Shown piece by piece: positions 19,077 to 34,472 of a stretch of 53,402 bases of DNA. Source of the DNA: a virus (lineage: Duplodnaviria; Caudoviricetes); the IMG/VR virus record IMGVR_UViG_3300035659_000019, positions 1 through 53,402 of that record; one strand, written 5' to 3'. The position numbers were made by a program, and so were the translations under genes. The notes under the pieces were generated by a model. That model made no database searches and was not told the DNA's origin. It worked only from the letters and a program-made list of their open reading frames with translations. How positions within the stretch are numbered: position 1 is the stretch's first letter; every line of letters begins with the position of its first letter.

Positions 19077-20402
19077 ATGAAGACCCCTCGCCCCTACCAA
19101 GTAACAGCGATCCAGCTTGCCCTTGCTCGGAATGCCCTCATAGCAGATGTCTGCGGACTCGGTAAAACTCTAGACGCAGTCTGCGCAGCACGTCTATTCG
19201 TTGGAGGTATGCACGGCATACGGCGCATTCTCATCGTTTGCCCCCTACGAGTTCGACTACAATGGGTGGAAGAGATCCGTGATCAGAACCCCGAGGCAAA
19301 AGTCTTTGTCATTGACCCCGGACTCCCGCTCGATCTTCAAATCCCCGAAAAGCCTAAGCCCTCAGGTTGGTACATTGTCTACTACGAAGGGCTTGCTCGA
19401 AGCGCAAAGGATCTACGTCCTATTGTCTGGGATGTTATCATCGCGGACGAGGCACACCGCCTTAAGAACCGCAAAACACGTTGGACTATCCAACTCAAGA
19501 CTCTCACCGCGATCCGTAAAATCGCACTCACGGCTACACCCCAGGAGAAAGGCCCTCAAGATCTTTGGTCGCCAGGCAACTGGCTCTATCCAGACGTTTT
19601 TACCTCCTACTGGAAGTTCTTCGACCACTATGTCGATGTTGACGAATTCACAAACCGTCCCAAAGGGATAAAGAACGAGAAGCAACTCGCATCCGTTTTG
19701 GCTCGCTTCATGCTCCGCCGTACCAAGGAGCAGGTTGAGCCAGATCTTCCCCCTCGCATCATGCAAACCGTTGACGTACCTATGACTCTTGTTCAGCAGA
19801 AGATCTACAACGAGGTCTCTAAGTCTCGAGATCTCACTGTCAAGGTCGAAGGGCAAACCCCTATACTCCTAATCGAAAACGTGTTAACGCACATCGTACG
19901 CCTTCAGCAAATCTCCTCTTGGCCTCCGCTTCTCGACTTCACCTCCTCGTCGGGAAAGGTCAACTGGGTGCTCGATTGGCTAAACGACAACCCACAGGAG
20001 GTAGTCGTTATCTTCTGTAAGTTTCGCGGAACTGTGGATGCGCTCGTCAGATCCATAGGGAAAACGAAACTGGAGGTCGTCGTTGGCGGTGTGCAAAGCG
20101 TGCCTGAACGGTTCGTTAAGGGCGAAGTAAATATTCTCGTTGGAACGATCGCCGCGATGGGCGAAGGTCTCAATCTACAACGGGCGGACGTCGCGCTCTT
20201 TGTCGATCAGGAGTGGTCAACCATCAAGATGACCCAAGCGATCGATCGTATCCATCGTATTGGGATCACAGGTCCTAAGCTTGTCTATTACCTCCGCTCA
20301 ACCAAGACCGACGATCTAGTACTAAGGGCTATCGAGAAGAAATGGACGGAGACGGAATTAGTGTATGCAGCCATCGAAGAGTGGAAGGCCCAGTCTAAAT
20401 GA
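19077..20402 (+). CDS. SNF2-like SF2 helicase
   Basis: GLGKT, IADEAH, LTATP, GEGLNLQ, QAIDRIHRIG. Confidence 0.93.
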   Translation: MKTPRPYQVTAIQLALARNALIADVCGLGKTLDAVCAARLFVGGMHGIRRILIVCPLRVRLQWVEEIRDQNPEAKVFVIDPGLPLDLQIPEKPKPSGWYIVYYEGLARSAKDLRPIVWDVIIADEAHRLKNRKTRWTIQLKTLTAIRKIALTATPQEKGPQDLWSPGNWLYPDVFTSYWKFFDHYVDVDEFTNRPKGIKNEKQLASVLARFMLRRTKEQVEPDLPPRIMQTVDVPMTLVQQKIYNEVSKSRDLTVKVEGQTPILLIENVLTHIVRLQQISSWPPLLDFTSSSGKVNWVLDWLNDNPQEVVVIFCKFRGTVDALVRSIGKTKLEVVVGGVQSVPERFVKGEVNILVGTIAAMGEGLNLQRADVALFVDQEWSTIKMTQAIDRIHRIGITGPKLVYYLRSTKTDDLVLRAIEKKWTETELVYAAIEEWKAQSK

Positions 20403-20416
20403 AAGTTCTACTTTCA

Positions 20417-20450
20417 TTTTCACTTTGTTTTCACTTTCGTGAGTTATAAT
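20417..20450 (+). promoter_or_regulatory. Candidate activator-dependent middle promoter
   Basis: TTTTCACTTTG-TTTTCACTTT then TATAAT. Confidence 0.6.
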
Positions 20451-20492
20451 TAGGTTATCTCTCAACGGAGCCGGAGGAAAGAAGAGGACACT

Positions 20493-21575
20493 ATGAAACA
20501 TAGCATCCACATCAGCGATGTTAGAAGCTTCAAGTCATGCCGTCGCAAATGGGCTTGGTCTAGTCCGCTACGGCGTAACTTGGAGCCCAACATTCCATAC
20601 GCTCCGTTCTTTACTGGACGCGGGCTCCACTATTGTTTGGAGATGTTCTATAGAGAACATACACCATTCTTGGACTCCCTGAAGCGGTTCCTCGAAATCG
20701 AGCTAGCCGAGATGGAGAAGACTGGTCGTCTGTGGCCTCAGGAGCAGTCCAAGATGGACGAGCAGATTGCTCTCATGATGGGCATGCTTAGTCACTACAA
20801 CCTCTGGGTCACAAAGGACCGCACTACGCGACTACGTGACGAGAACATCGAATGGCTCTCGTTCGAAAGGGAATTCAGTGTCCCCCTCTACAACCCCTAT
20901 ACTGGAAATAAATCTTCCAAGGTATACCTTGCAGGACGTTTCGATGGACTTGTCAAGTTGCTGCCGGAAGGCGGCATATGGATTTGGGAGACTAAAAGTA
21001 CCAGATCCATCTTCGAACTCGAGAACAGCCTCGCAAATGACGAACAGTGCGGCGCTTACATCTATGCTGCAGAGCAGCTGTTCGGCGTACCTGTTACTGG
21101 CGTTATCTACAACGTCATGCGTAAGAAACTTCCAACAGAGCCTGCAGTCCTTCAAAACGGCCTCCTCTCGAAGAACAAGGCCATAGATACGACAGCAGAA
21201 GCATATCTGGAAGCGGTCCGTCGTAATCATCCTGACTGGGACAACGCTCTTACGCTACAGTTCTACGAGGACATACTACAGCATCTCATCGCTAAGGGCA
21301 ACACGTTCTTTGCTCGCGTAGCGATTTACCGTACGCCAACTGAGATTCAACGGTTGGCGTCAAATCTCTGGGCTGTCGCTTTGGAGATGACTCGTGAGTC
21401 AACGATCATTTATGATGCTCCGGGCTGGCTGAGTTGCAACTTCTGCCATTTCCGTGCCCCTTGCCTAGCAATGAATGCGGGTGCGGATCACGAGTTCCTA
21501 CTCGAGCAGGAGTATCGGAAGCGAACGGATACCAGAGAGCTACTGTACGCAGAGGAGGACCAGAATGGCAAGTAA
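20493..21575 (+). CDS. Cas4-like PD-(D/E)XK exonuclease
   Basis: N-terminal SCRRKW, GRFDGL...WETK, QCGAY, C-terminal CNFCHFRAPC. Confidence 0.85.
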   Translation: MKHSIHISDVRSFKSCRRKWAWSSPLRRNLEPNIPYAPFFTGRGLHYCLEMFYREHTPFLDSLKRFLEIELAEMEKTGRLWPQEQSKMDEQIALMMGMLSHYNLWVTKDRTTRLRDENIEWLSFEREFSVPLYNPYTGNKSSKVYLAGRFDGLVKLLPEGGIWIWETKSTRSIFELENSLANDEQCGAYIYAAEQLFGVPVTGVIYNVMRKKLPTEPAVLQNGLLSKNKAIDTTAEAYLEAVRRNHPDWDNALTLQFYEDILQHLIAKGNTFFARVAIYRTPTEIQRLASNLWAVALEMTRESTIIYDAPGWLSCNFCHFRAPCLAMNAGADHEFLLEQEYRKRTDTRELLYAEEDQNGK

Positions 21576-21990
21576 CCCAATAACAGCGGAGTACATCGCT
21601 GGGCTGTTCGATGGCGAGGGCTCTATATGCTGTCTCCATAATGTAAGTGGGACCCCCCGCGTACAGTTAAACGTTACGAACACAAATCGTGAGGTTCTAG
21701 TAGACCTCAAGGAGTTCTTTGGTTTTGGTACTATGGCTAATAGCTCGGCCTTTGGTACACGCCCATGTTACCAGTGGCAGCTTGCTGGAGCACCCAAGGT
21801 CATAGAGGTCCTAACTGAGTTGCTTCCGTACCTTCGGGTCAAAGAGAAGCAGGCAAAGATTGCGGTACAGCTATGCGAGCGAATCGCAAGTAGTGCTGGC
21901 CGGAGTAGGCGTCCCTTATCGGACGAAGAATACTCCATTCGCGAAGGCCTAGCGGCTGAAATTACTGCATACAACAAAGGAGGTACCTAA
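21565..21990 (+). mobile_element. Free-standing single-motif LAGLIDADG homing endonuclease gene (HEG1)
   Basis: EYIAGLFDGEGSI...LLPYLRVKEKQA. Confidence 0.9.
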
Positions 21991-22874
21991 TGGCAAGCCG
22001 CATCACAAGAATACAGCTCGAATCCCCATACATCAAAGCATTGTTCTACGGGCAGCCGGGCTCCACAAAAACCCGGACCGTTGCCACAGCCGCTATGGAC
22101 GAGAGACTTTCTCCCGTCCTAATGCTTGACTCAAGCGGTAATCCTATTAGCATTCGTAACTACCCACAGTTGCCGGACATCGTACAGATAGACTCACTAA
22201 CAGAGTACAATCCTATTTACGAATGGCTTGCTGCGGGTCAGCCTGAGGAACATGGTGTTCCCAAGAGCTTGGATCTTCATCCGCCAGTGCCATATAAGAC
22301 CGTTATTATTGACGGCGTTACAGGAGTTCAGCGTATGTCCTTTAGTATCGTAATCGGGACAACGAAAGCGGGTCCCGGTACGATCCAGGAGTCTGCCGAG
22401 TTTCAGCACTTCAACAAGGTACTCGCGCAGATGGTTACGTTCGCCAAGCTGTTCTATAGTCTTCATATGAACGTACTCATTACGTCCCTCGAGAGGGAAG
22501 ACGTGGACGAAGCAACTAAGACTATCCACTACAAACCTCTCTTATGGGGTCAGAGCGCTGGCGAGGTTCCTGGTTACGCGTACCTTGTTTCAAGGCTCGT
22601 CCATCGTGCTCGGCTAGAAAACAAGGACAAGATGGACCTAGAGGAGGCACATCGCCTTCATATCATCGAAGACTCAATTGGCGTCGGCACTGTCTCAGTT
22701 GCGTTATTCAGACCAACTGGCAAGTATATCGCAAAGGACCAATACGGCAAGTGTGGTCCGTTCATGGTGAATCCTACCATGACCAAAATTCTCGACAAGA
22801 TTCTGGCCGTTGAGCCAGTTCTTGAGGCGGGTGCAAACCCAACTAATCCTACCCCAGAAAGGAACCTAACCTAA
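21990..22874 (+). CDS. AAA_24/Sak4-like ATPase (recombination)
   Basis: ALFYGQPGSTKT, KTVIIDGVT, YIAKD; lies between the exonuclease and DUF669 genes. Confidence 0.8.
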   Translation: MASRITRIQLESPYIKALFYGQPGSTKTRTVATAAMDERLSPVLMLDSSGNPISIRNYPQLPDIVQIDSLTEYNPIYEWLAAGQPEEHGVPKSLDLHPPVPYKTVIIDGVTGVQRMSFSIVIGTTKAGPGTIQESAEFQHFNKVLAQMVTFAKLFYSLHMNVLITSLEREDVDEATKTIHYKPLLWGQSAGEVPGYAYLVSRLVHRARLENKDKMDLEEAHRLHIIEDSIGVGTVSVALFRPTGKYIAKDQYGKCGPFMVNPTMTKILDKILAVEPVLEAGANPTNPTPERNLT

Positions 22875-23284
22875 TGCCTGCTATTGATTTTTCCCAAGTC
22901 CAAGACCTAACCCCTATCCCGCAAGCTTCCTACCCTATGGAGATCGTTGCCGCAGAGGTTGGTGAGTCGAAGAAGGGTTTCGCTAAGATCGACCTTCGGT
23001 GGAAAGTGCTCGAAGGTGAGTTTGAAGGTCGTCAGATTTTCGACTCCATGAGCTTCCACCCCGACGCTCTGTGGAAGACGAAGGCGGTCCTTAAGGCTCT
23101 AAACTTCCCCGACGATTTCGCCGGTGAGGTCGGGCCTGAAGATCTCCTAAATCGCCAAGCGACGGTGTACGTATCTGTTGAGACTGGTCGAATCGATCCG
23201 GCCACTCAGGAGCCGTACCCCGATCGTAATCGGGTTGTCAAGGTCAAGCCGCTCGGCCAAACCATGAGCTCGCTGCTCGCCTAA
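22874..23284 (+). CDS. DUF669-like ssDNA-binding protein
   Basis: IDFS...PIPQASY...SKKG...LEGEFEGRQIFD...NRV. Confidence 0.75.
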   Translation: MPAIDFSQVQDLTPIPQASYPMEIVAAEVGESKKGFAKIDLRWKVLEGEFEGRQIFDSMSFHPDALWKTKAVLKALNFPDDFAGEVGPEDLLNRQATVYVSVETGRIDPATQEPYPDRNRVVKVKPLGQTMSSLLA

Positions 23285-23302
23285 CAACTCCATATAGACA
23301 CA

Positions 23303-23336
23303 AGACCCCTTCTAACCCGCCGGGAGGGGTCTCTTT
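23303..23336 (+). terminator. Intrinsic terminator
   Basis: AGACCCCT...AGGGGTCT followed by CTTT. Confidence 0.6.
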
Positions 23337-23339
23337 GTC

Positions 23340-25745
23340 GTGATGACCATGGACCCAAAGACGAATGCGTTTCTCACCCACTTTAAGTTCGGCGAGGGTT
23401 TGTTGGCTATCCTTACTGGCTCGCCGCCTCAGGCAGTCGCTTACTGTAAGGATATTCCGGAGACTCTACCGACTAATGAGGATGTCTACTTCGGCCCCGC
23501 AATGCGTAACAAACAGGGGAACACGAAGGACGACGTACTCGGTACAGTGGCTCTGTGGGTCGACGTTGATGATATGCAGAGACCACTATATACACTACCG
23601 CCTAGCGCGATGGTCTTTAGTGGACATGGATGGCATCTCTACTGGCTCCTTAAGGAGCCTCTAACAGACATACAAAGAATCGAAGAGCTCAACCAACTGC
23701 TAGCCAAGGATGTGCCTACGGCTGATCCAGCATGTTGGAACGTAAATAGGGTCCTACGCATTCCTGGGACCATCAATACGAAAGATCCAAGAGCCGATGT
23801 CGTACTCCGCAGCGATAATGCTCTACGATACATTCCTGATGACATTGCGGTACTGGGACACCTGGATCGCGCCGCCAAACATAAAATTCGGACGGGCGAC
23901 TCTCGAGGATTCCGATCTAGGAGCGAACGTGACTGGTCTATCATAACGGACTTAGTCTCCGCTGGCGCTACTGACGAATTGATACTTCTAATATTCAGTA
24001 ACCAGCCATGTGGAGATAAAGTTCGTGAGGCTCCTGATCAGTACCTAGAGCATACCATCGAAAAGATTCGAGCCAAGGTAACGGCTGGACATCCGCCGCC
24101 TGCAGGCTCAGCTATCGAGGAGCACGATGACGGCTACTACATGTGGTCACGCAGAGCAGTTAGGAGAGTTAGTACGTTCCTAATCGAACCAGTACTTCTT
24201 CTTGACGGCTCTGCATATCAAGCGGAAGACGCTATTGTGGGCAAAGTCAAAGCTAGCGGTTACACTTGGGACAACACAACATTCTCAAGGAGTGCGTTCA
24301 CGTCGATCCCAAAACTCGACAAGGAATGTCCGATGGCCGCTTGGCAATGGCTAGGCAGAGATGAGGATGTCCGGGCTCTGTTACCGTACCTCCTAGCTCA
24401 ACTACAAGAGAAAGGTCTTCCTAAAATAATGGCGAGCCCCTCTCTGGGGCTACATTACGTGCATGACGTACCCTACTTCCTTGGCGACAAGCAAGTGTTG
24501 AGCGGAGATCAGTTATGGGACGGCTTCAGTGGACCTATAGCTTGGTTACCGTCAAAGCGCGAGCATCCAAAACTAGACTTAAGGCCTGACGTGAACGAGC
24601 ATGAGCTCGAGATCCTACGGTCATTGGTACCGTATCTGAACGAACCCCAGGCAGTCTGGCCTATCTTGGGATGGTACGCAGCGGCGTGTATTAAACCATG
24701 GCTCGAGGTTAAAGGGTACCGCTTTCCCATTCTAAATGTAGTCGGTACGAAAGGGTCAGGTAAGACAACGTTGATACAACGTATCTTCATGCCATTATTT
24801 GGTCAGCTAGATCCCAGGAGCTACGACGCAGGTACGACACGATTTGTTACATTAGCACTGATGGGAGCATCGAATGCAATACCGGTCGCTTTTAGCGAGT
24901 TCCGTTACGATACTGTAGAACGGTTTATCCGCTTCATCCTGTTAGCCTACGATACTGGGCATGACCCACGTGGGCGTGGTGACCAGACTACCGTAGATTA
25001 TGCCTTATCCGCACCGTTTACGGTGGACGGTGAAGACTTAATTGAGGACCCGGCCGCGCGAGAACGTATAGTGGTTTGCCACTTACATCCTAACATGATC
25101 GCAGAAGGTTCGGACTCTTACAAAGCCTACAACGAGTTCCGGAACTGTATCCCGCCTCACTTTGGAGGGCACTTCATTCAGCTAGTCCTACGAGCAATGC
25201 AGTCAGGCGAACTGGAGACTCTCCTTGGGTGGTGTCGCGAAGTAGTGTTCTCGCAGTTTCCATCTAAGCTACCAGATCGAGTGAGACAGAATCACATAGT
25301 GTCTTATCTCGGTTGTGTACTTTGGTGTCGTGCCGTTAATATGGAACCGCCTTCGCCAGAGATTCTAACTAGATCGATCGCAAGCGTATACGATATAGCG
25401 ACGGGGAGAGCCCGCACGCTCGCAGACGCGATGGTCGAAGATGTTGTGAATGCCTGTGCGCAGACGACGTTGGCAATACGCTATGTGGTATTAGACGACG
25501 GTAGGACCCTATACTTCCAGCTATCCTCGGCACACAGCTGGTGGTTATCTGCTAGACGTCGCCAAGGCCGAGGCGCCTTGGAAAGAGATGCAATCCGGTC
25601 ACAAATGAAGGAAGCTCCATACATACGCGAGCCTAAGGTAATCGAGGGTACGTGGATGTACGGAGTTAGTTTAGTAGCAGCACAAGAGAGCGGATTAGAT
25701 GTACCTGATTACATCAACACCCGCGAGTTGAAAGTGAGGTTCTAA
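23340..25745 (+). CDS. Primase-helicase (RepB/AEP-like primase plus P-loop domain)
   Basis: LWVDVD, SGHGWHLYW, RVLRIPGTINTK, SRSERDW, Walker A GTKGSGKTT. Confidence 0.85.
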   Translation: MMTMDPKTNAFLTHFKFGEGLLAILTGSPPQAVAYCKDIPETLPTNEDVYFGPAMRNKQGNTKDDVLGTVALWVDVDDMQRPLYTLPPSAMVFSGHGWHLYWLLKEPLTDIQRIEELNQLLAKDVPTADPACWNVNRVLRIPGTINTKDPRADVVLRSDNALRYIPDDIAVLGHLDRAAKHKIRTGDSRGFRSRSERDWSIITDLVSAGATDELILLIFSNQPCGDKVREAPDQYLEHTIEKIRAKVTAGHPPPAGSAIEEHDDGYYMWSRRAVRRVSTFLIEPVLLLDGSAYQAEDAIVGKVKASGYTWDNTTFSRSAFTSIPKLDKECPMAAWQWLGRDEDVRALLPYLLAQLQEKGLPKIMASPSLGLHYVHDVPYFLGDKQVLSGDQLWDGFSGPIAWLPSKREHPKLDLRPDVNEHELEILRSLVPYLNEPQAVWPILGWYAAACIKPWLEVKGYRFPILNVVGTKGSGKTTLIQRIFMPLFGQLDPRSYDAGTTRFVTLALMGASNAIPVAFSEFRYDTVERFIRFILLAYDTGHDPRGRGDQTTVDYALSAPFTVDGEDLIEDPAARERIVVCHLHPNMIAEGSDSYKAYNEFRNCIPPHFGGHFIQLVLRAMQSGELETLLGWCREVVFSQFPSKLPDRVRQNHIVSYLGCVLWCRAVNMEPPSPEILTRSIASVYDIATGRARTLADAMVEDVVNACAQTTLAIRYVVLDDGRTLYFQLSSAHSWWLSARRRQGRGALERDAIRSQMKEAPYIREPKVIEGTWMYGVSLVAAQESGLDVPDYINTRELKVRF

Positions 25746-26059
25746 TGGATGGAAGAGTAACGTTGCGGTCAGCCGTAAAGAGCCAGCTCCAGACCTTGAA
25801 ATCGGAGACGGCTTTCTATTACGGCGAGGTTGTTGAAATAAAGGGCGTGAAGTTTACCATAACGCGTATGAACAACTCTACGCTATGTGTACACCCCATC
25901 AATAAGTTCCGGCATTTCGCTGGCATTCTTTTAGTAGAGGAGAGTGAACATGTTACAACAGGTGTTGCAGATTCAGAAGGAACTGGCGCCCCCGAGAGCA
26001 GTAGTACTCCTGTCGGGCGGGATGGACAGCACGACGTGCCTGTCCCAAGCAATCCGTGA
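25745..26059 (+). CDS. Hypothetical protein
   Basis: TAATG-coupled to the primase gene; overlaps queC. Confidence 0.45.
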   Translation: MDGRVTLRSAVKSQLQTLKSETAFYYGEVVEIKGVKFTITRMNNSTLCVHPINKFRHFAGILLVEESEHVTTGVADSEGTGAPESSSTPVGRDGQHDVPVPSNP

Positions 26060-26723
26060 CGGGAACGACGAGATCTTAGCGGTTACGTGTTTCTATGGAA
26101 GCAAACACGCCGCTGCAGAGGTTGGCGCTTCACGTCAGATCGTGGAGTGGTATAACAGTCGTGGCATAGCGAAGGTCGACCAACGAATCATCGAGCTACC
26201 TAATATCTTTAGAGGGTCGGGCTCGGCACTTATGAACGAGGTCAATATGCCACAGATGTCCTACGCAGACATACACGAGTCCTTTGGTCCTAGTCCAACG
26301 GTCGTACCGTTTCGCAATGCCAACCTTATCTCGGTAGCGACAACGCTCGCTATCGGCTTCAAGGCCACATCCGTATACATCGCTGCACACGCAGATGATG
26401 CACACAACTGGGCCTATCCTGATTGCACACCAGAGTTCCTGGGTGCGATGGCTGCTGCCGTGTACATAGGTTCGTACCATGCAGTTACCCTACGGTTTCC
26501 GTTCGTCTGGATGACCAAGGCCAACATCGTTGCGTGCGCGGAGATGGCGCCCTACGCTCCTCTCGGGCTCACCTGGTCTTGTTACGAAGACGGGCTACAA
26601 CAATGTGGTACTTGCCCAACGTGTATCGAACGTATCCACGCTTTTAGGGTGAACGGTTGGAAGGATCGACGTACTTACGAAGCTCCAGTCGATTGGATGA
26701 ATCTCCCGGAGTTTCCATATTAG
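25950..26723 (+). CDS. queC: 7-cyano-7-deazaguanine synthase
   Basis: VVLLSGGMDSTT, VPFRN, YPDCTPEF, TWSCY...CGTCPTC. Confidence 0.95.
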   Translation: MLQQVLQIQKELAPPRAVVLLSGGMDSTTCLSQAIRDGNDEILAVTCFYGSKHAAAEVGASRQIVEWYNSRGIAKVDQRIIELPNIFRGSGSALMNEVNMPQMSYADIHESFGPSPTVVPFRNANLISVATTLAIGFKATSVYIAAHADDAHNWAYPDCTPEFLGAMAAAVYIGSYHAVTLRFPFVWMTKANIVACAEMAPYAPLGLTWSCYEDGLQQCGTCPTCIERIHAFRVNGWKDRRTYEAPVDWMNLPEFPY

Positions 26724-26731
26724 GAGGATGT

Positions 26732-26977
26732 ATGAACTTCTTCAAAGACTCAACTACCAAAGACCTGCAAGAGATACTGACAGGTGTGGCCGCTCACGGC
26801 ACGCGACAGTTGGTCCAGAGAGTTTGGGCTGTAATTACTCTGACGGCCTGGTTTTCTCTGATGGCCTGCTTTTGGCTTCACATGTTTGCTACGGACGTAA
26901 AGGTAGTAGGTCCTTCCATCTTCTTCGCCGTTGTATTCATTAGTTGCGTAATCATCATACAAGGAGGTCCGAGATGA
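26732..26977 (+). CDS. Two-TM membrane protein
   Basis: AGGAGG RBS; two hydrophobic segments. Confidence 0.6.
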   Translation: MNFFKDSTTKDLQEILTGVAAHGTRQLVQRVWAVITLTAWFSLMACFWLHMFATDVKVVGPSIFFAVVFISCVIIIQGGPR

Positions 26978-27399
26978 CCGTTACTATATCGCGTGAGTAC
27001 TCGTTCAGCGCAGCACACCGCCTTGAGGGGCATCCCCAGTGCGGTCGTATGCATGGCCACAACTACGTAGTCGAGGTGATCGTCGAGGCAAGCATCTTCG
27101 AGCTATCGCCGAACGGCATGATCCTAGACTATCATGACCTCGACGAGATTGTCAAGCCCATCGTTGCACTACTGGATCATCGTTACCTTGTTAGCGATGC
27201 GAATGCTCGTGCTGGCGACGTTTACTATAAGGCAGTACCTCGTGACTGCTATCTCATGGATGTCGAGCAAACTACGGCGGAGCTCATTGCGGGATGGTTC
27301 TTTGCAAAGCTTGAGGTACACTACCGGCTAAAGCATTACGGGATAGTTGTGATCATCTCAGAGACTCCAAAGAGCAAGGCCGCATATGCGGCAGACTGA
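26974..27399 (+). CDS. queD: 6-carboxy-5,6,7,8-tetrahydropterin synthase
   Basis: FSAAHRL...CGRMHGHNY...LDHRYL...TTAE...ETP. Confidence 0.93.
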   Translation: MTVTISREYSFSAAHRLEGHPQCGRMHGHNYVVEVIVEASIFELSPNGMILDYHDLDEIVKPIVALLDHRYLVSDANARAGDVYYKAVPRDCYLMDVEQTTAELIAGWFFAKLEVHYRLKHYGIVVIISETPKSKAAYAAD

Positions 27400-27438
27400 T
27401 CTACGCCTAAAGGAGCTAAATAAGACAGGAGGTGAACT

Positions 27439-27792
27439 GTGAAGCAGGTCGATCTGGCCTATGCGGCAGGGTTCTTTGACGGAGAAGGGTCTATTACGAT
27501 CTCGAACAAAGGCGGTTATGTTCGAATCGAGGTAGCCGTCTCTCAAAAACTGCCTGCAGTACTCCAGTGGTGGGAGACTCACTTTGACGGCAATACATAT
27601 CACAGCGTAGTCTCCCAGTGGAAGATTCATGGCTCTAAAGGCGTCGCACTCTTAACGTTACTTCTCCCGTATCTTATCGTTAAGAATGTCGACGCTCAAG
27701 AGGCAATTCATATATGGTCGATACGAGCTGACCGCGAGCTCACGACACAACTAATCAATGAAAGGAAGGTTCGACGTGGTAAAGTTTCTTGA
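27439..27792 (+). mobile_element. Free-standing LAGLIDADG homing endonuclease gene (HEG2, divergent)
   Basis: LAYAAGFFDGEGSI...LLPYLIVK. Confidence 0.85.
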
Positions 27793-28165
27793 TGTCAATC
27801 CCGATGAGTTTGATAATACCCGAGAAGGCAGACGTGGACGTGTTGCGTATCCTATCCTAAAAGAGTTCCTTGAGACAGGCAAGTTCATGGCCCAGCTTGA
27901 TCGAACGGGAATGCAACAGTCGTTCCAGTCTCTCTGCAGTACGCTAAATGCGTACATCCGTAACCATGTTATGCCAATCAAGATTATCACCCGACAGATG
28001 CAAATCTACCTGATGCGGCTTGACGTGGATAAAGAAGGTAAGGCCATCCCAGACTGGGTTGCTAAGAGCCTCGGAGCTCCGCTCCTTCTAGGTGAGGCTC
28101 CCGTAATCGATGCTGCGGAAGTCCAAAAGCGGATGGCAGTTGAAATCAACAAGAGTACGAAATGA
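27776..28165 (+). CDS. Hypothetical protein
   Basis: GTG start after AAGGAAGG; ATGA-coupled to the next gene. Confidence 0.55.
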   Translation: MVKFLDVNPDEFDNTREGRRGRVAYPILKEFLETGKFMAQLDRTGMQQSFQSLCSTLNAYIRNHVMPIKIITRQMQIYLMRLDVDKEGKAIPDWVAKSLGAPLLLGEAPVIDAAEVQKRMAVEINKSTK

Positions 28166-28821
28166 ACGTTCTTGTTGTATGTGCTAAGCGTTATAACGGC
28201 CACGAACTTTGGGTTACCTTGGGTGTGCTTCAATCTAGAGGGCACACCTCCGAGGTCGTTTCAACGCAAACCCTTATCTCGGACGAGGTTACTGGACAGG
28301 CTAATACCATCAAACGGACTCTCGACGACGTAGCAACCCTCGAAGGCTTCGATGCTCTCGTATTTGTTTCGGGCAATATGCAAGATACAGAGGCGCACTG
28401 GAAGCACCCAAGGACGTTAGCCTATGTGCATGAGGCCATCGAGCGTAACCTGCCTATAGCCGCAATCTGCTGCTCCGTTCCTATTGTCAAGGAGGCTGTA
28501 AAGGGGAAGCGAGTCTCCTTCTTTCCTCTCGTACGCTCTCGTGAGATTCTTAGAAACGCGGGTGCAATACTTCAAACAGTAACTATAAGTGTCGACGGGA
28601 AGCTCGTTACTGCGGAGCACCAGATGGCTACACAGGTCTGGGTGGAAGAATTCTGCAATGTGCTCGATGGTACGGAGTCGAGCCTGCATCTCGTTGACTC
28701 TGGCTACAAGCCAAAAGGGCGTGAACGTAAGGCGATCCCGGAACTCGAGCACCTTCGGCAAATCGTTCGCAAGACAGGACGGACGGATATCGATGATACC
28801 AAACCTAGTAAAGGAACGTAG
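28162..28821 (+). CDS. DJ-1/PfpI family (class I glutamine amidotransferase-like) protein
   Basis: Conserved Glu in YNGHEL, FDALVFVSG, nucleophile elbow IAAICCS, VKGKRVS, VDGKLVTA. Confidence 0.8.
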   Translation: MNVLVVCAKRYNGHELWVTLGVLQSRGHTSEVVSTQTLISDEVTGQANTIKRTLDDVATLEGFDALVFVSGNMQDTEAHWKHPRTLAYVHEAIERNLPIAAICCSVPIVKEAVKGKRVSFFPLVRSREILRNAGAILQTVTISVDGKLVTAEHQMATQVWVEEFCNVLDGTESSLHLVDSGYKPKGRERKAIPELEHLRQIVRKTGRTDIDDTKPSKGT

Positions 28822-29050
28822 CGATAAGTACGGTGAAGCCTGGCTAACTACAGGCGAGATCGCACGCGACCTAGATGCAGTCGGTCGCCTTCCTGCCTTC
28901 GCTCTGTTCCCTTGGTTAATAATCCTGAACAAGCTTATCCGGGCGCTCACGTCTCCGTACCACATCGATCACTGGAGAGACATTGCTGGTTACGCTTACA
29001 TAGTTACTGAGCACTTAGAAAAGGTGCAACATGACAAAGTACAAGGTTAA
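28793..29050 (+). CDS. DUF6378-like alpha-helical putative nucleotide pyrophosphohydrolase
   Basis: ER...YG...KLIR...HIDHWRDIAGYA. Confidence 0.65.
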   Translation: MIPNLVKERSDKYGEAWLTTGEIARDLDAVGRLPAFALFPWLIILNKLIRALTSPYHIDHWRDIAGYAYIVTEHLEKVQHDKVQG

Positions 29051-29690
29051 CGAAATATTTCATTCAATCCAGGGTGAAGGTTACTGGTCAGGACGGCCGG
29101 CAACCTTCATCCGTCTTCAAGGATGCAACCTAACCTGCAACTGGTGTGATACGAAGTACGCACTAGGAGCAGGTGGTGAATGGATGGACACGAGAGAGGT
29201 CACCCGCCAGATTCGTATCGGCAATATGGCTGTTATTACTGGCGGCGAGCCGATGCTCTGGGATCTCGAGGAGCTTTTAGCGAACCTTGCGTTCCTTGGT
29301 GTCTACACCCAAATCGAGACGAACGGCACGCTAAAGCCGCTCTATATATCGGAGCCTAATTGGCTTACTGTATCTCCTAAGCCCGTATGTCCGATAGCAT
29401 CGGATAAAGTACTCCCTGCCCAGTTAGCTTTTAGGCAGCCTTGGGAAGTAAACGAGTACTACTATACGTACGCAAACGAGTTCAAGTGGGTTGTAGACGG
29501 TGATCTTAGCTTCGACTGTGTCGAAGCCGCGTGGAGGCGATGCCGTAGAAAGCGACCGCCTGTTTTCTCCCTAATGCCAGAGGGCTGTCCGCCCAAACCC
29601 GAGTTTGTACATCTTGCTCTAGTCTGGCTCGAGAAACATCCTGCCTGGCGTTACTCGGATCGACTACAGTGGAGGATAGGTGTGAAATGA
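29031..29690 (+). CDS. queE: 7-carboxy-7-deazaguanine synthase (radical SAM)
   Basis: EIFHSIQGEG, FIRLQGCNLTCNWCDT, ITGGEP, IETNGT, VSPK. Confidence 0.95.
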   Translation: MTKYKVNEIFHSIQGEGYWSGRPATFIRLQGCNLTCNWCDTKYALGAGGEWMDTREVTRQIRIGNMAVITGGEPMLWDLEELLANLAFLGVYTQIETNGTLKPLYISEPNWLTVSPKPVCPIASDKVLPAQLAFRQPWEVNEYYYTYANEFKWVVDGDLSFDCVEAAWRRCRRKRPPVFSLMPEGCPPKPEFVHLALVWLEKHPAWRYSDRLQWRIGVK

Positions 29691-29845
29691 ACGACAGATG
29701 TCTCTACTGCGGTCGCGAGCTACCTGATGGCATGATAAAGGACGGCCTTTGTAAACGCTGTCACGAGATTTTTTATGGCAGCGGCGATGTTCCCGAGCCG
29801 CTACCAGACGACATAGAAGAAGAGGAGGAAGACGACGATGAGTGA
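29687..29845 (+). CDS. Small CxxC-CxxC protein with acidic tail (52 aa, not in ORF track)
   Basis: MNDRCLYCGRELPDGMIKDGLCKRCHEIFYGSGDVPEPLPDDIEEEEEDDDE; ATGA-coupled to queE. Confidence 0.7.
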   Translation: MNDRCLYCGRELPDGMIKDGLCKRCHEIFYGSGDVPEPLPDDIEEEEEDDDE

Positions 29846-29990
29846 ACCTAGAAAGTGCGAATGTTGTGGCGCACCGCTATTCCCTTGGCAGGCACGCCTT
29901 TGTGCCACTTGCCTCCAGAAGTTCATGAATAGCGGTGGCTGCTCTCCTATACCAGAAACAGATGAGGAGGACGACGATGACGACGAATAA
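29838..29990 (+). CDS. Small CxxC-CxxC protein with acidic tail (50 aa, not in ORF track)
   Basis: MSEPRKCECCGAPLFPWQARLCATCLQKFMNSGGCSPIPETDEEDDDDDE; GAGGAGG RBS. Confidence 0.7.
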   Translation: MSEPRKCECCGAPLFPWQARLCATCLQKFMNSGGCSPIPETDEEDDDDDE

Positions 29991-30531
29991 CGTTAGTGAG
30001 CTTACTACCATCTTAGCTACGATTTTCGGCAAGGAATGTTTCGATGATTCTGTCTCCAGTACTGCAAGCCGCGTACTTCGGTATTGGGGTGAGTTTCAGC
30101 CCAAAAGTGAGATAGACTTCGAGTTTACAGTCTTTCCAGCAACCGTCAACCAGCTCATAATCGTCAAAGACATTGAGCTGGAATCCATATGTGCACACCA
30201 CCTGCTGCCGTTTTACGGCAATGCTCACGTAGGATATATTCCTAATGAGCTAATGGTGGGGCTGAGCAAGATACCACGCCTAGTAGAGTTCTGGGCACGT
30301 CGCCCCACTACACAAGAGCAACTAACTGCGAACATAGCATCGGACTTGAAACATCGTCTCGCTGCTATGGGCGTCGCAGTAACCATTGAGGCTAGGCACA
30401 CGTGCATGTCGTGCCGCGGCGTACGTAAGCACAATGGTGTAATGATAACGAGCGAGATGCGTGGAGTATTCCTTACCGCTGAAGCAGCTCGATCGGAATT
30501 CCTAAACCTGATTGCGAGGGATCGTATATGA
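29977..30531 (+). CDS. folE: GTP cyclohydrolase I
   Basis: SICAHHLLPFYG, VGLSKIPRLV, QEQLT, HTCMSCRGVRK. Confidence 0.95.
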   Translation: MTTNNVSELTTILATIFGKECFDDSVSSTASRVLRYWGEFQPKSEIDFEFTVFPATVNQLIIVKDIELESICAHHLLPFYGNAHVGYIPNELMVGLSKIPRLVEFWARRPTTQEQLTANIASDLKHRLAAMGVAVTIEARHTCMSCRGVRKHNGVMITSEMRGVFLTAEAARSEFLNLIARDRI

Positions 30532-30782
30532 GCGTCGTAGAGCAAATTTGGCTATGTGATGCTTGGATCGATCGCCTTAGCGTCCTACGTGACGCCGCGA
30601 CACAGACTGTGAAGAACAACCCTGATCTCGATCCCACAATCCGTACTAGAGTTCTGGAATGCAGGCTCGAGGTCGAATCCGTACTCGCCTCCTTTATTCA
30701 GGAGCGCGATAAACTAAGAAAGCTGGTAGAAGATGAAATACGCCGCGATAACTCCGACGCCATACCTCCCACTCCTCAATAG
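30528..30782 (+). CDS. Hypothetical helical protein
   Basis: ATGA-coupled to folE. Confidence 0.5.
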   Translation: MSVVEQIWLCDAWIDRLSVLRDAATQTVKNNPDLDPTIRTRVLECRLEVESVLASFIQERDKLRKLVEDEIRRDNSDAIPPTPQ

Positions 30783-31473
30783 GATGTCGTACCATCTGCT
30801 CCTAGGCCAGAAGCTCGTTACTGACCTAAAGTACTTAGAGTGGGCAGAGATGCGGCACTACCAAGGAGATTTCCTTATCGTCGATAACGGAGCCGCTGAG
30901 CCCGAGCAGGAGCGTGTGCCTTTCGAAAATATCCTCAAGGTTGCGTTGAACATTTACGCAGACGAGATCGTCGTACCAGACGTCATACGTAACTCTGAGT
31001 TGACACTCGAAATGGCTCGACACTGGGGTCCAACGATTCCGCTCAACAAGCGTCTAATCATTCCTCAGGGACGTGACCTGGAAGAGTGGAAGTCGTGCTT
31101 CCTTGAGCTGAAGCATCTACTTAGCTTCGTAGCCGTGGGCATACCAAAGCATGCCGAGACCTTCAAAGGAGGTCGAGCTGCTATCCTCATGTGGCTTCAC
31201 GAAGCGGACTTCTGCCGCCGATCTAATATTCATCTCTTCGGCTGTCATACAGATCCCCTGGAAGAGATCCGCCAGGCGATAAGGATCTGTCCTGAGATCC
31301 GAGGGATCGACACTGGAGCGGCGGTTGCCTACGCTCAAGTAATGCAACCGCTCACGTGCGGCAAGCACTTTGGAGTCGAGTGGGATAAACAAGCAGATCC
31401 TCGAAGCATATCGTACAACATGTGCTCGATAGCGAACTGCATAGAGGAGGAACTGAATGCATATAACCATTGA
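30733..31473 (+). CDS. TGT/DpdA-like guanine transglycosylase (divergent)
   Basis: TGT-like motifs LIVDNGA, VVPDV, IIPQG, VAVGIP, IHLFG, GIDT inside a que/folE cluster. Confidence 0.7.
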   Translation: MKYAAITPTPYLPLLNRMSYHLLLGQKLVTDLKYLEWAEMRHYQGDFLIVDNGAAEPEQERVPFENILKVALNIYADEIVVPDVIRNSELTLEMARHWGPTIPLNKRLIIPQGRDLEEWKSCFLELKHLLSFVAVGIPKHAETFKGGRAAILMWLHEADFCRRSNIHLFGCHTDPLEEIRQAIRICPEIRGIDTGAAVAYAQVMQPLTCGKHFGVEWDKQADPRSISYNMCSIANCIEEELNAYNH

Positions 31474-31870
31474 GTACATCGCTGGGCTGTTCGATGGCGA
31501 AGGTTGTATAACTTGCAACCACACGCAAAGCGCCCCCATAATACACTTGCAAGTCTCTAATTGCAATCGTCCGATCTTAGAGGAGCTTAAGGCATTCTTT
31601 GGTCATGGTACTATCCAGACCAATGGCGGCGGAGGTGATCGACCCGTATACTGTTGGCACACGAGCGGCGCCTCTAAGGTTACGGAGGTCTTAACGAAGC
31701 TTCTTCCATACCTTCGGATCAAGCAGAAGCAGGCATCGATTGCGCTGAAACTATGCGAACGTATCATAAATCGGGTCGGGCGAGCTTGGCCTGCATTAAC
31801 CTACGAAGAGTACTCCCTCAGAGAAGGTCTTGCAGAAGAGATTACTCGTCTCAACAAAGGAGGTACGTAA
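31457..31870 (+). mobile_element. Free-standing LAGLIDADG homing endonuclease gene (HEG3, close paralogue of HEG1)
   Basis: EYIAGLFDGEGCI; 29 nt identical to HEG1 (31472-31500 = 21589-21617); same EEYS.REGLA.EIT..NKGGT end. Confidence 0.9.
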
Positions 31871-32127
31871 TGCATATCACAGTCAAGGATCAGACTACCG
31901 GCTCAGATGCTACGATGTGCGTAGAACGTAGTACGGGCACTTGCGTTATCCTTGGGGGAGATATCGACATGTTTGACAAGCTCGTAAACATGGCGAACTC
32001 TCTCAAGGCGGACTCTGTAACTATACTCGCTGCTACGCCAGCCGTAGCGGCGCTCGAGGCTCTCGGCTGGAAGGCATCTGAAACAGTAGTCGCTATGACT
32101 AAGCTTACAAGGAGGGCTAGACAATGA
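31870..32127 (+). CDS. Hypothetical protein
   Basis: AAGGAGG RBS, TAATG coupling. Confidence 0.55.
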   Translation: MHITVKDQTTGSDATMCVERSTGTCVILGGDIDMFDKLVNMANSLKADSVTILAATPAVAALEALGWKASETVVAMTKLTRRARQ

Positions 32128-34472
32128 ACAAAGCTCCTTACGCACACTGCGACGAATGTACTCTCAAGGACCAGCCCTACGTCCCGTGGTTTGGTCCTCT
32201 CGAGCCTGAGCTCATCTTCGTAGGAGAAGCTCCCGGCGCCGAAGAGGTTCGTGAAGGCAAGCCGTTCGTAGGACCCAGCGGACGCCTACTCGACGCTACC
32301 CTTATAAACATAGGACACGATCCTGGAGAGACCTATCGTACGAACTGCGTTATGTGCCGTCCACCACAGAACAGGACTCCTACGGACGAGGAGCTCCTAT
32401 GTTGCTACGAACGCCTGCTATACGAACTCGCCTCCGTCCATCAGAACAAAGTAGTAGCGCTCGGCAAGGCTGCAGGTGACATGCTGCATGCAAATGAAGG
32501 ACGAGGCGCGTGGAACGTTGGTGCTGCTGGTCTAATAGTCCTTAAAACGTGGCATCCTGCTTACGTGCTTCGTAAGCCTTCGGAGTACAATGCTCTCGAA
32601 CATGATTTACGGAAGGCTTACGGTGGGATGTACCAGGAACCCGCTTTCCTGAACGCCATTAAGGTGCACATCCCCGATACCTACGAAACGTTAGAGCGTG
32701 AGCTGAGCTACTGCCCTCCACACGCAGAGGTATCGTTTGACATAGAGTCGGACCAGGTACAATGGTATGATATGCCTGGCAAAAAGGCTGATGCCGTCCT
32801 AATGCTAGGGATCAGCTGGAATGACGAGTACGGAGTAATCATCAACGATGAAATGCTCTACGACACTGAAGGAGTGATTCCGCTCCTCCAAGAGTTCTTC
32901 AACCGCTCGGATTTCTTTCTCTCAGGGCATAACTCAAAGTTCGACGAAGTCTTCCTACAGCATACCTTCGGTCTCAAGATCCGCTCAAGTATAGATACTA
33001 TGACAGCACACTATGTATTGAACGAGAACGAACGGCACGGTCTTAAAGCTATTGCGTGGGAAGAGTTCAGCCTTCCGGACTACGAGGAGGAGCTCCTAAA
33101 CAAGTACCTCAAGAGTCGGAACGACTACTACTCCAAGATCCCCTTCAATGAGTTCGCTGTATATTGTGCAACGGACCTGCGAGTTACTCGAACTCTCTCA
33201 AGAGTTCTTAAGAAGCGGATGGAAGAGCAAGGCCTATGGGAGCGTCCCTACAAGCTCGTCCTCCTACCTGCACACGACCTCTTGGTCGACATGGAGTTAG
33301 CTGGCGTTAAGGTCGACATTCCGTATCTCGTTGCTGCTCGAGTAAAGATGGAACTCGAGCAAGAGCGAGTTGCTAAGGTGTGCGCAGACATGATGGGGCT
33401 CGATGATTTGAACCTTAGTAGCTGGATGCAGGTCGGACATGTGTTGTGGGACGTATTGAAGCTCCCGCAGTCTCGTAACCCACGATTGAAGCCTCGCTCG
33501 ACCAATGAAGAGGCCGTAATGCATTTGAAAGGGAAGCATCCATTCGTGGATCAACTACTCTACTACAGACACGTTGCGAAGCTCAAGGCGTCGTACATCG
33601 ACAACATGTTGGAGTTTGCAGATGTACAGGGGCGTGTGCATCCCTCGTGGCGCGAGGAAGGAACGGAGATCGGACGACTATCGGCGAGAGATCCTGCAGT
33701 TCAAACGATTCCACGACCGGGCGATAAGAAAGCAGCGGACTACTCGGTCTATACTGACGGTGCTATGATACGCGGAGCCGTAATCGCAAATGAGGGTTGC
33801 AAGCTTGTTATCTGCGACTACTCTCAGGCGGAGCTTCGTGTTATAGCTGTACTAAGCAACGAACAGTTCCTTTTGGACGTCTATGCGAATGATAGGGATC
33901 TACATACTGAGGTTGCTACTGCAATGCACGGACCAGATTTTACGAAGGAGCAACGGGTTCAATGTAAGATGTTCAACTTCTCCTACATCTACGGTGGTTC
34001 GGAGTACTCGTTTGCTTTAGACGCAGGCTTGCCTATACCCATCGCAACAGCCTTCGTACGTAAGTATAACAGTCTTATGCCTAACCTCCTAGCATACCGT
34101 AAGTCACAGTACGAACTGCTTGTCGCACAAGGCTACGTTGAGACGATCTTTGGGCGCCGGAGGCGCTTCCCGTTGATCACCCAGGAGAACCGTGACGAAG
34201 CGCGCAAGGCAGCTGTACATCAACCGGTTGCAGGCACTGCGAGTGACCTGACGTTGCTCAGTGCTGTTGAGGCCTGGAAGAGATACGGCTATACAATCGT
34301 TTTGTTGGTCCACGACAGCATAGTTGCGGAAGTGCCTAACGATAAGGCGGACGAAGCAGCGGTACGTATCTCTGGTATTATGTGCGAGATGGGGGAGAAG
34401 TATTTACCACAGGTGAAATGGAAAGCCGACTCGGAGGTTCGCTCTCGATGGGTGGATCCTCCTACGTTCTAA
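32124..34472 (+). CDS. polA: Family A DNA polymerase with N-terminal family-4 uracil-DNA glycosylase-like domain and 3'-5' exonuclease
   Basis: UDG: CDEC, VGEAPG.EE...PFVGPSG, TNCVMCRPPQNRTP, WHPA. Exonuclease: FDIE, HNSKFD, YCATD. Polymerase: DYSQAELR, KMFNFSYIYG, VHDS. Confidence 0.93.
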   Translation: MNKAPYAHCDECTLKDQPYVPWFGPLEPELIFVGEAPGAEEVREGKPFVGPSGRLLDATLINIGHDPGETYRTNCVMCRPPQNRTPTDEELLCCYERLLYELASVHQNKVVALGKAAGDMLHANEGRGAWNVGAAGLIVLKTWHPAYVLRKPSEYNALEHDLRKAYGGMYQEPAFLNAIKVHIPDTYETLERELSYCPPHAEVSFDIESDQVQWYDMPGKKADAVLMLGISWNDEYGVIINDEMLYDTEGVIPLLQEFFNRSDFFLSGHNSKFDEVFLQHTFGLKIRSSIDTMTAHYVLNENERHGLKAIAWEEFSLPDYEEELLNKYLKSRNDYYSKIPFNEFAVYCATDLRVTRTLSRVLKKRMEEQGLWERPYKLVLLPAHDLLVDMELAGVKVDIPYLVAARVKMELEQERVAKVCADMMGLDDLNLSSWMQVGHVLWDVLKLPQSRNPRLKPRSTNEEAVMHLKGKHPFVDQLLYYRHVAKLKASYIDNMLEFADVQGRVHPSWREEGTEIGRLSARDPAVQTIPRPGDKKAADYSVYTDGAMIRGAVIANEGCKLVICDYSQAELRVIAVLSNEQFLLDVYANDRDLHTEVATAMHGPDFTKEQRVQCKMFNFSYIYGGSEYSFALDAGLPIPIATAFVRKYNSLMPNLLAYRKSQYELLVAQGYVETIFGRRRRFPLITQENRDEARKAAVHQPVAGTASDLTLLSAVEAWKRYGYTIVLLVHDSIVAEVPNDKADEAAVRISGIMCEMGEKYLPQVKWKADSEVRSRWVDPPTF

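Follow-up and report, generated by a model that had tools for sequence, protein, structure and literature searches.

Stand-alone endonuclease genes are known from the T-even phages, where the seg and mob open reading frames (ORFs) lie between conserved genes, begin within the upstream ORF, have their expression tied to that of their neighbors and are present or absent among related phages (PMC2988022, in the sections consulted). The overlap with the upstream ORF in T4 consists of UAAUGA in mobE, 11 bp in segF, 20 bp in segC and 23 bp in mobA (PMC2988022). Here, we compare these and other systems with two homing endonuclease genes (HEGs), HEG1 and HEG3, in an uncultured sediment phage represented by the IMG/VR record IMGVR_UViG_3300035659_000019 (53.4 kb, about 95% complete); the whole stretch of 53,402 nucleotides (nt) that was analyzed is referred to as the window. 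HEG1 and HEG3 resemble the seg and mob genes in their layout, but they are single-motif LAGLIDADG genes rather than GIY-YIG or HNH genes, and each is flanked by a repeat of the downstream gene's start, which the consulted sections on the T-even genes do not describe (PMC2988022). In some cases, members of the broad HEG family to which they belong lie within the start of a gene, use its start signals and first codons, and leave behind a second, respelled start. The window is a plausible but weak, minimal and uncertain member of this start-swap layout, in a new variant, and two loci found in a survey of the family (L078 and L298) show the class better.

The nearest published cases are the homR region of MobA and the mORF gene hybrids of fungal mitochondria. 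In the MobA element, which comprises mobA and the N-terminal extension of gene 60 with its homologous region (homR), a cassette inserted into coding sequence carries a substitute copy of the target and a new downstream start, and the rewritten stretch protects against re-cleavage (bioRxiv 10.1101/2022.08.31.505936, in the parts consulted). MobA is an HNH enzyme, and the gene is split mid-way into two proteins with new tails and a bypass cassette (bioRxiv 10.1101/2022.08.31.505936), whereas the genes targeted by HEG1 and HEG3 remain whole and are affected in their start region only. The mORF "gene hybrids" (atp6 in Allomyces; atp6, atp9, cox2 and nad3 in Glomus) contain an endonuclease ORF within the terminal part of a gene, accompanied by a diverged second copy of this part, and the gene stays whole (PMC3630166, in part). 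The mitochondrial cases duplicate C-termini over tens of codons and raise no issue of a ribosome-binding site (RBS), whereas only 8 nt of ORF are duplicated in the window and the duplicated piece includes translation start signals. Fusion of intron ORFs to upstream exons has been termed "core creep" (PMC10448965, in part), and the terms "start codon," "overlap" and "recoded" are absent from an article on the HEGs of phage ICP1 (PMC10448857). A full-text literature search found no description of 5'-end duplication by phage HEGs, which is not proof of absence.

Two HEGs at tight gene junctions

The region from 19 to 35 kb of the window is a plus-strand module of replication and 7-deazaguanine genes (Pfam and PHROG annotation). 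HEG1 (locus 1) and HEG3 (locus 2) are located at two junctions in this module, with the following features:

20493-21575, + strand: PD-(D/E)XK exonuclease gene (Pfam PDDEXK_1, 7.6e-16; phrog_1218 exonuclease, 1.3e-40)
21550-21572, + strand: locus 1 repeat, left copy (Shine-Dalgarno sequence, SD; spacer; ATG; 5 nt), with the exact 9-mer AATGGCAAG at 21564-21572
21565-21990, + strand: HEG1, single-motif LAGLIDADG endonuclease gene, 141 amino acids (aa); last 20 nt AACAAAGGAGGTACCTAATG, with SD and stop/start overlap
21975-21997, + strand: locus 1 repeat, right copy, 78% identical to the left copy, with the exact 9-mer at 21989-21997
21990-22874, + strand: gene for a Sak4-like AAA_24 recombination ATPase 3' of HEG1, starting MASRIT (Pfam AAA_24, 1e-8; phrog_124, 1.3e-27; 93 homologues)
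30733-31473, + strand: DpdA-like gene, matched only by phrog_20335 of unknown function; the name DpdA comes from the preliminary description of this DNA
31445-31467, + strand: locus 2 repeat, left copy, with the exact 9-mer AATGCATAT at 31456-31464
31457-31870, + strand: HEG3, single-motif LAGLIDADG endonuclease gene, 137 aa; last 20 nt AACAAAGGAGGTACGTAATG
31858-31880, + strand: locus 2 repeat, right copy, 83% identical to the left copy, with the exact 9-mer at 31869-31877
31870-32127, + strand: small ORF of 85 aa 3' of HEG3, starting MHITVK and followed by the PolA gene

Each HEG is flanked by AATG plus 5 nt, and its start lies on the tail of the upstream gene. The last 11 nt of the exonuclease gene are shared with the start of HEG1, the stop codon TAA (21573-21575) following immediately after the left 9-mer, and the final 17 nt of the DpdA-like gene are shared with the start of HEG3. 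At the other end, the last codons of both HEGs encode NKGGT* and hold a strong SD and a TAATG stop/start overlap inside the HEG, as had been noted in the preliminary description; the last 20 nt are identical at 19 positions despite an overall DNA identity of 65%. All strings and coordinates quoted in that description were recovered. The 9-mers occur nowhere else in the window (AATGGCAAG at 21564 and 21989 only, AATGCATAT at 31456 and 31869 only), and neither does AACAAAGGAGGTAC outside 21973 and 31853. Furthermore, AGAGGAGGA is present at 21551, 29821 and 31443, and a 29-nt block (GAGTAC...GGCGA) at 21589 and 31472.

The products of HEG1 and HEG3 are predicted to be homodimeric, single-motif LAGLIDADG homing endonucleases of the I-CreI/I-MsoI type and are probably active. 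Both genes match phrog_5046 and have an intact YIAGLFDGEG motif, and the LAGLIDADG_1 family in Pfam is matched with 23.1 bits by HEG1, exactly at the cut-off, and with 35.5 bits by HEG3. In a family profile search against solved structures (PDB), I-MsoI was found at 7.2e-23, on a tandem construct, and I-CreI at 6.4e-11. With one LAGLIDADG motif and a length of about 140-170 aa, the make-up is that of I-CreI and I-MsoI (profile matches of 1e-10 to 1e-23). These two enzymes come from group I introns in the rRNA genes of algal chloroplasts, whereas HEG1 and HEG3 are free-standing in a phage.

The closest relative of HEG1 and HEG3 that was found has 51% identity (P0099, on a 1.6-kb contig), and the loci with HEG relatives from the metagenome, genome and viral scans have at most 41%, except for one short segment of 93% in L316. 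This segment (IMG/VR, L316:2001-2477) corresponds to residues 3-64 of HEG3 (tblastn) and has a weak overall E-value of 1e-4. A tblastn search against phages recovered HEG relatives at 29-33% only, and a profile search over 1.84 billion representatives returned mostly two-domain proteins. There was no DNA match to either HEG locus or to the surrounding window in 50,697 GenBank phage records. Contigs from other sediment runs match only blocks of about 32 nt at the LAGLIDADG motif, at 31474-31505 in HEG3 and at 27466-27497 in a third gene, HEG2, and then continue with unrelated sequence, so that other HEG relatives in the same habitats share those exact nucleotides.

Repeats on the start codons

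The flanking repeats extend to 23 nt in an imperfect form (repeat search). Other exact 9-nt direct repeats arise by chance in the same 1-kb stretches, and the unusual point is that the repeats are placed on both start codons, at both loci. We compared 53 gene starts of this phage in the interval from -22 to +11 (1378 pairs). HEG3 and its neighbor are identical at 23 of 33 bases and rank second, with only two pairs reaching that value, and the start regions of HEG1 and Sak4 are identical at 19 of 33 bases, with 35 of the 1378 pairs at least as alike. The most similar pair (24/33) consists of the Sak4 start and that of an unrelated gene at 11873, neither of them an HEG. The start region of this GTG gene (11851-11883) resembles the Sak4 start in the 3' end of HEG1 (acaaca[ga]aggaggta...), and there is no HEG-like protein at that position.

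The preliminary description had put the probability of five matching bases after ATG at both loci at one in a million, an estimate that needs to be revised. For one fixed pair of starts the value is about 1 in 1000. When alternative starts were allowed and mismatched pairs of HEGs and downstream genes were taken as the null, 0.6-1% of the mismatched pairs had a run of at least 5 bases after the start codon. Two of the three HEGs in the window, HEG1 and HEG3, reach a run of 5, and the chance of this happening in one window is about 3e-4 to 3e-6, which is unlikely, yet very many windows were scanned. HEG2, a distant copy with no start-codon repeat, reaches a run of 2 and serves as an internal control within the window. 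Between HEG3 and its neighbor, the likeness runs two codons further (MHIT), with synonymous differences (ATA/ATC and ACC/ACA).

A longer form of the layout in the HEG family

The survey of the family covered 243 loci with HEG homologues (80 viral, 80 metagenomic, 7 genomic and 76 further viral), and 153 distinct loci remained after the removal of 21 duplicates, of 23 loci that lacked a usable start or downstream ORF, and of 46 long proteins, most of them with two domains. The starts of the HEG and of the downstream gene have at least 6 of 8 residues in common at two of these loci, L078 and L298, a level that was reached by none of about 6000 mismatched pairs. The preliminary description had proposed to check whether the first codons of HEG homologues match those of the downstream gene; they do at these two loci but not at the other 151. 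The clearest start-swap case among the surveyed loci is L078, an IMG/VR contig fragment with three genes:

260-868: QueD gene
849-1253: LAGLIDADG HEG
1250-1936: QueE gene

The HEG in L078 begins with VMLRLSEL followed by EAAYIAGLFDGDG, and QueE begins with MMLRLSELYISTQGEG right at the HEG stop. The first 8 codons of the HEG copy the QueE N-terminus, with differences in 6 of the 8 codons and the residues unchanged, and the QueD stop is located within the duplicated stretch. The duplicated N-terminus belongs natively to QueE, as its homologues show (in L222, for example, it reads MLRLSELYTSVQGEG). Among the 13 relatives with an identified QueD, 10 have it abutting QueE. No relative of L078 close enough to provide an empty site at the nucleotide level was found, the best having 54% QueE identity. 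There are no HEGs in the larger gaps between QueD and QueE in L232, L214 and L222. Small ORFs without HEG similarity, covering 0.3-1 kb, are located between the two genes in L228-L236 (e.g., L232:1010-2000), L214:1721-2003 and L222:1651-2003, and this junction thus accepts other insertions too. HEG2 lies directly after QueD, as does the unrelated HEG in L078, and the post-QueD junction may be a recurrent landing place.

In L298, the HEG is located at 1941-2381 and the downstream gene starts at 2368. The first 18 or so codons of the HEG (MREFTSGATRDSEDGKLD) duplicate the beginning of the downstream gene (MRTFDSGATRDDEDSKLD), with 6 synonymous and 4 replacement differences. The product of the downstream gene presumably shares similarity with the N-terminal domain of phage dATP/dGTP diphosphohydrolases. 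At gene starts, L078 and L298 mirror the mORF hybrids.

A proposed start swap at the two loci

Our reading of the window, to which we give an even chance, is that each HEG entered a few bases inside the ORF of its target gene, that the resident SD and ATG drive the HEG, and that the portable SD and TAATG of the HEG re-initiate the target gene. HEG1 and HEG3 would then have been inserted as free-standing genes exactly at two tight junctions of the replication and 7-deazaguanine module. The HEG would be read from an RBS and an ATG within the end of the upstream gene, the place at which the downstream gene begins in relatives, and would be expressed at the level of the displaced gene, while the strong SD and the TAATG overlap in the NKGGT* codons would enable translation of the displaced gene itself. 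The resident start region would now serve the HEG, and the second copy behind the HEG would serve the target gene. One possible route, which we only infer, is that a break near the start codon was repaired by copying the HEG from elsewhere, and that, at the SD-like 3' end, the repair then moved to an intact copy of the target as its template, such that the stretch from the SD to the break was duplicated. The left start would once have belonged to the target gene and the repeat would have arisen with the insertion. The enzymes may cut HEG-less alleles nearby and spread via recombinational repair.

The gene order in relatives points in this direction. An exonuclease gene lies directly 5' of Sak4 in all nine IMG/VR relatives (L004-L012, with 33-62% Sak4 identity), and no HEG was matched at E<=1e-3 in any of these nine junctions. 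The spacing between the two genes ranges from a 4-nt overlap to about 250 nt, and the exonucleases end in short, acidic tails, which would be expected of tails that encode the SD of Sak4. Likewise, the stop codon of the DpdA-like gene overlaps the ATG of the next small gene in two relatives (the records of L008 and L005). The ancestral state at both junctions of the window would, to judge from these relatives, have been a tight gene-to-gene contact. The preliminary description had proposed a search for related phages that lack the HEGs, and such phages exist for both junctions, but the presence and absence of the HEGs holds at the level of synteny only. The four HEG junctions are all bridged by contigs of high identity from four further sediment metagenomes, none of which skips a HEG; rare variants are lost from contigs, and rare empty alleles are therefore possible. 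The HEG-filled state is stable.

The N-terminus of Sak4 provides a second line of evidence. Since 19 of 40 Sak4 homologues begin with MA, and one with MARRITR, both MAS and RIT are native to Sak4, and the left start of HEG1 has the appearance of an original Sak4 start. Compared with HEG3, HEG1 has a 9-nt extension (GCAAGTAAC) right after its ATG, and this extension contains the five repeated bases and the exonuclease stop codon.

Several observations weigh against a start swap in the window. The exact duplication of ORF sequence comprises only 8 nt per locus (ATG plus 5 nt). The SD part carries no information, being generic for this phage, and what signal there is comes from the bases that follow the ATG. 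At the protein level, the best value in the window is 3 of 8 residues, which is within the null (about 4-5% of mismatched pairs reach it), and the real HEG1 and Sak4 starts, read directly from the sequence, are identical at 2 of 8 residues. There is no duplication at 151 of the 153 family loci, and the layout is thus not a trait of the family. The claim of the preliminary description that the HEG takes over the resident start and supplies a replacement agrees with the long form in L078 and L298 and with the Sak4-like start of HEG1, but less well with the small size of the duplication in the window. Moreover, the left start regions of the two loci (AGAGGAGGAnCnGAATG) are identical at 15 of 17 positions, which fits cassette-borne starts as well as resident ones, and this could mean a target preference, a generic SD or starts carried by the cassette.

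It is also debatable whose N-terminus was copied. The pattern [LI][ST]x[ED]Y precedes IAGLFDGEG in 8 of 9 aligned family members and in many of the fetched loci, and the IT in MASNPITAEY and MHITIEY is thus the HEG's own. The similarity of MASNPIT to MASRIT and of MHITIE to MHITVK, which the preliminary description attributed to copying of the downstream gene, is therefore less telling than it seems at first. Since the N-terminus of HEG3, MHITIEY, is canonical for the family, the direction of copying could run the other way at locus 2. The homologue search with the small ORF (P0006) yielded no usable homologue from which its native start could be read; one distant homologue, located directly after the DpdA-like gene in the L008 record, has a different N-terminus.

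Also to be counted here is that no empty allele at the nucleotide level was found in GenBank phages, in IMG/VR protein scans or in the contigs of the four sediment runs. No close relative emerged from the single-protein IMG/VR scans in which Sak4 and the DpdA-like protein served as queries, and Sak4 relatives were recovered at only 23-25% by tblastn against phages. The preliminary description had predicted that empty alleles would collapse to a single copy of the 9-mer, which is disfavored in its simple form: a hypothetical collapse deletes the upstream stops and extends the exonuclease by 43 codons and the DpdA-like protein by 15, and none of the upstream genes in the relatives has such an extension. 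Either the cassette also supplies the upstream stops or the ancestral junction differed.

Finally, HEG1 and HEG3 are best regarded as old paralogues and not as the result of a recent hop, and any descent of one from the other would date far back. The proteins are identical at 81 of 136 residues (60%) and the genes at 267 of 411 bases, and different codons are used at 32 of 82 identical residues, which lends no support to the earlier suggestion that the element had moved to a second site in the same genome. With such an old split, the intact 9-mers would require selection or later homing events. The 29-nt block had suggested a recent conversion event between the two genes, but this idea is not compelling, since 60% of the identical residues share the codon anyway. 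We think it improbable that the lineage of HEG1 and HEG3 recognizes translation-initiation regions (strong SD, fixed spacer, ATG and first codons) instead of one particular gene and hops between unrelated genes as a splice-free cassette specific to gene starts, which at each landing would seize the resident start and provide the displaced gene with its portable SD-TAATG. The idea that it lands on SD-ATG junctions as such found no support in the collapsed junctions, which lack dyad symmetry (4 of 9 pairs match, which is less than the random median and is reached by 99% of random places); the true target may lie elsewhere.

Alternative explanations

As the main alternative, it is possible, if somewhat doubtful, that HEG1 and HEG3 are ordinary free-standing HEGs in tight operon junctions, that the upstream overlap and the 3' SD represent the normal grammar of the phage, and that the five post-ATG matches are due to chance and favored second codons. 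The free-standing HEGs of T4 often overlap the upstream ORF (PMC2988022, in the sections consulted), and the start regions of this phage generally resemble one another, with ATGGC opening 6 of the 53 listed starts and ATGGCAAG occurring four times in the window. The absence of the duplication from nearly all of the surveyed loci is also in line with chance, and a coincidence of 1e-4 to 1e-6 can surface when very many windows are scanned. However, chance accounts less readily for a repeat of equal length (AATG plus 5 nt) on both starts at two loci, for the second rank of HEG3 and its neighbor among the 1378 pairs and for the continuation of their likeness over two more codons with synonymous differences, and it leaves aside that the long form of the layout is present in the same HEG family.

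We consider it unlikely that the cassette carries both starts, with the left AGAGGAGGAnCnGAATG being the HEG's own SD and ATG, which rewrote the last codons of the upstream gene, and the right AAAGGAGGTACnTAATG serving the next gene. The post-ATG identity would then stem from short-patch conversion between similar ends, or the HEG start would have been copied onto the neighbor. Such a cassette could explain why the left contexts are nearly identical although the target genes are unrelated, and it would fit the canonical MHITIEY of HEG3, the neighbor at locus 2 having perhaps copied the HEG, as well as the unnatural upstream extensions that the collapsed alleles give. On the other hand, the MA start is native to Sak4, acidic and SD-encoding exonuclease tails are native in the relatives, SDs similar to AGAGGAGGA are common in this phage, and the 9-nt extension of HEG1 is left unexplained.

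LAGLIDADG genes are often borne by introns or inteins (general knowledge; PMC10448857, in part), but it is extremely improbable that HEG1 and HEG3 reside in group I introns or represent inteins of the adjacent genes, in agreement with the preliminary description: no Rfam family was matched at E<=0.1 over 20000-33000, there is no non-coding flank, and each HEG is an ORF with its own start and stop in a frame that differs from those of its neighbors, overlapping on either side with two different, complete annotated genes, and is thus a free-standing gene.

If the two loci are indeed start swaps, HEGs can occupy the first codons of essential phage genes and need neither an intron nor an intein to do so, since they would take over the translation start of the gene and bring along a spare one. 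This would explain the expression of the HEG at the level of its target, the immunity of the target to re-cleavage and the mosaic gene starts in phage modules. For genome annotation, it should be noted that N-termini are easy to call wrongly, for the HEG as well as for the displaced gene. What the window contributes is a minimal case, with two paralogues that lie at different genes; the long form represents the stronger material.

Other features of the module

The remaining genes of the module are as follows:

19077-20402, + strand: SNF2 helicase gene
After the Sak4-like gene and before QueC: DUF669 protein gene, then a gene for an 801-aa protein without a family match
26974-27399, + strand: QueD gene, preceded by QueC
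27439-27792, + strand: HEG2, distant third LAGLIDADG gene, 117 aa, with a GTG start; after QueD, with its own 39-nt spacer
Between HEG2 and the radical-SAM gene: unknown ORF, then DJ-1/PfpI protein gene
29031-29690: gene for a radical-SAM protein in the QueE position, followed by GTP cyclohydrolase I
32124-34472, + strand: PolA gene with UDG domain

HEG2 and HEG3 are interleaved, in the region 25950-31473, among the genes for QueC, QueD, the radical-SAM QueE-like protein, GTP cyclohydrolase I, the DJ-1/PfpI protein and the DpdA-like protein. The 7-deazaguanine gene set of the phage represented by L078 resembles the set in this region. In the family A DNA polymerase (32124-34472), an N-terminal domain of the uracil-DNA-glycosylase superfamily (Pfam UDG, 7.2e-25) precedes the 3'-5' exonuclease and polymerase domains.

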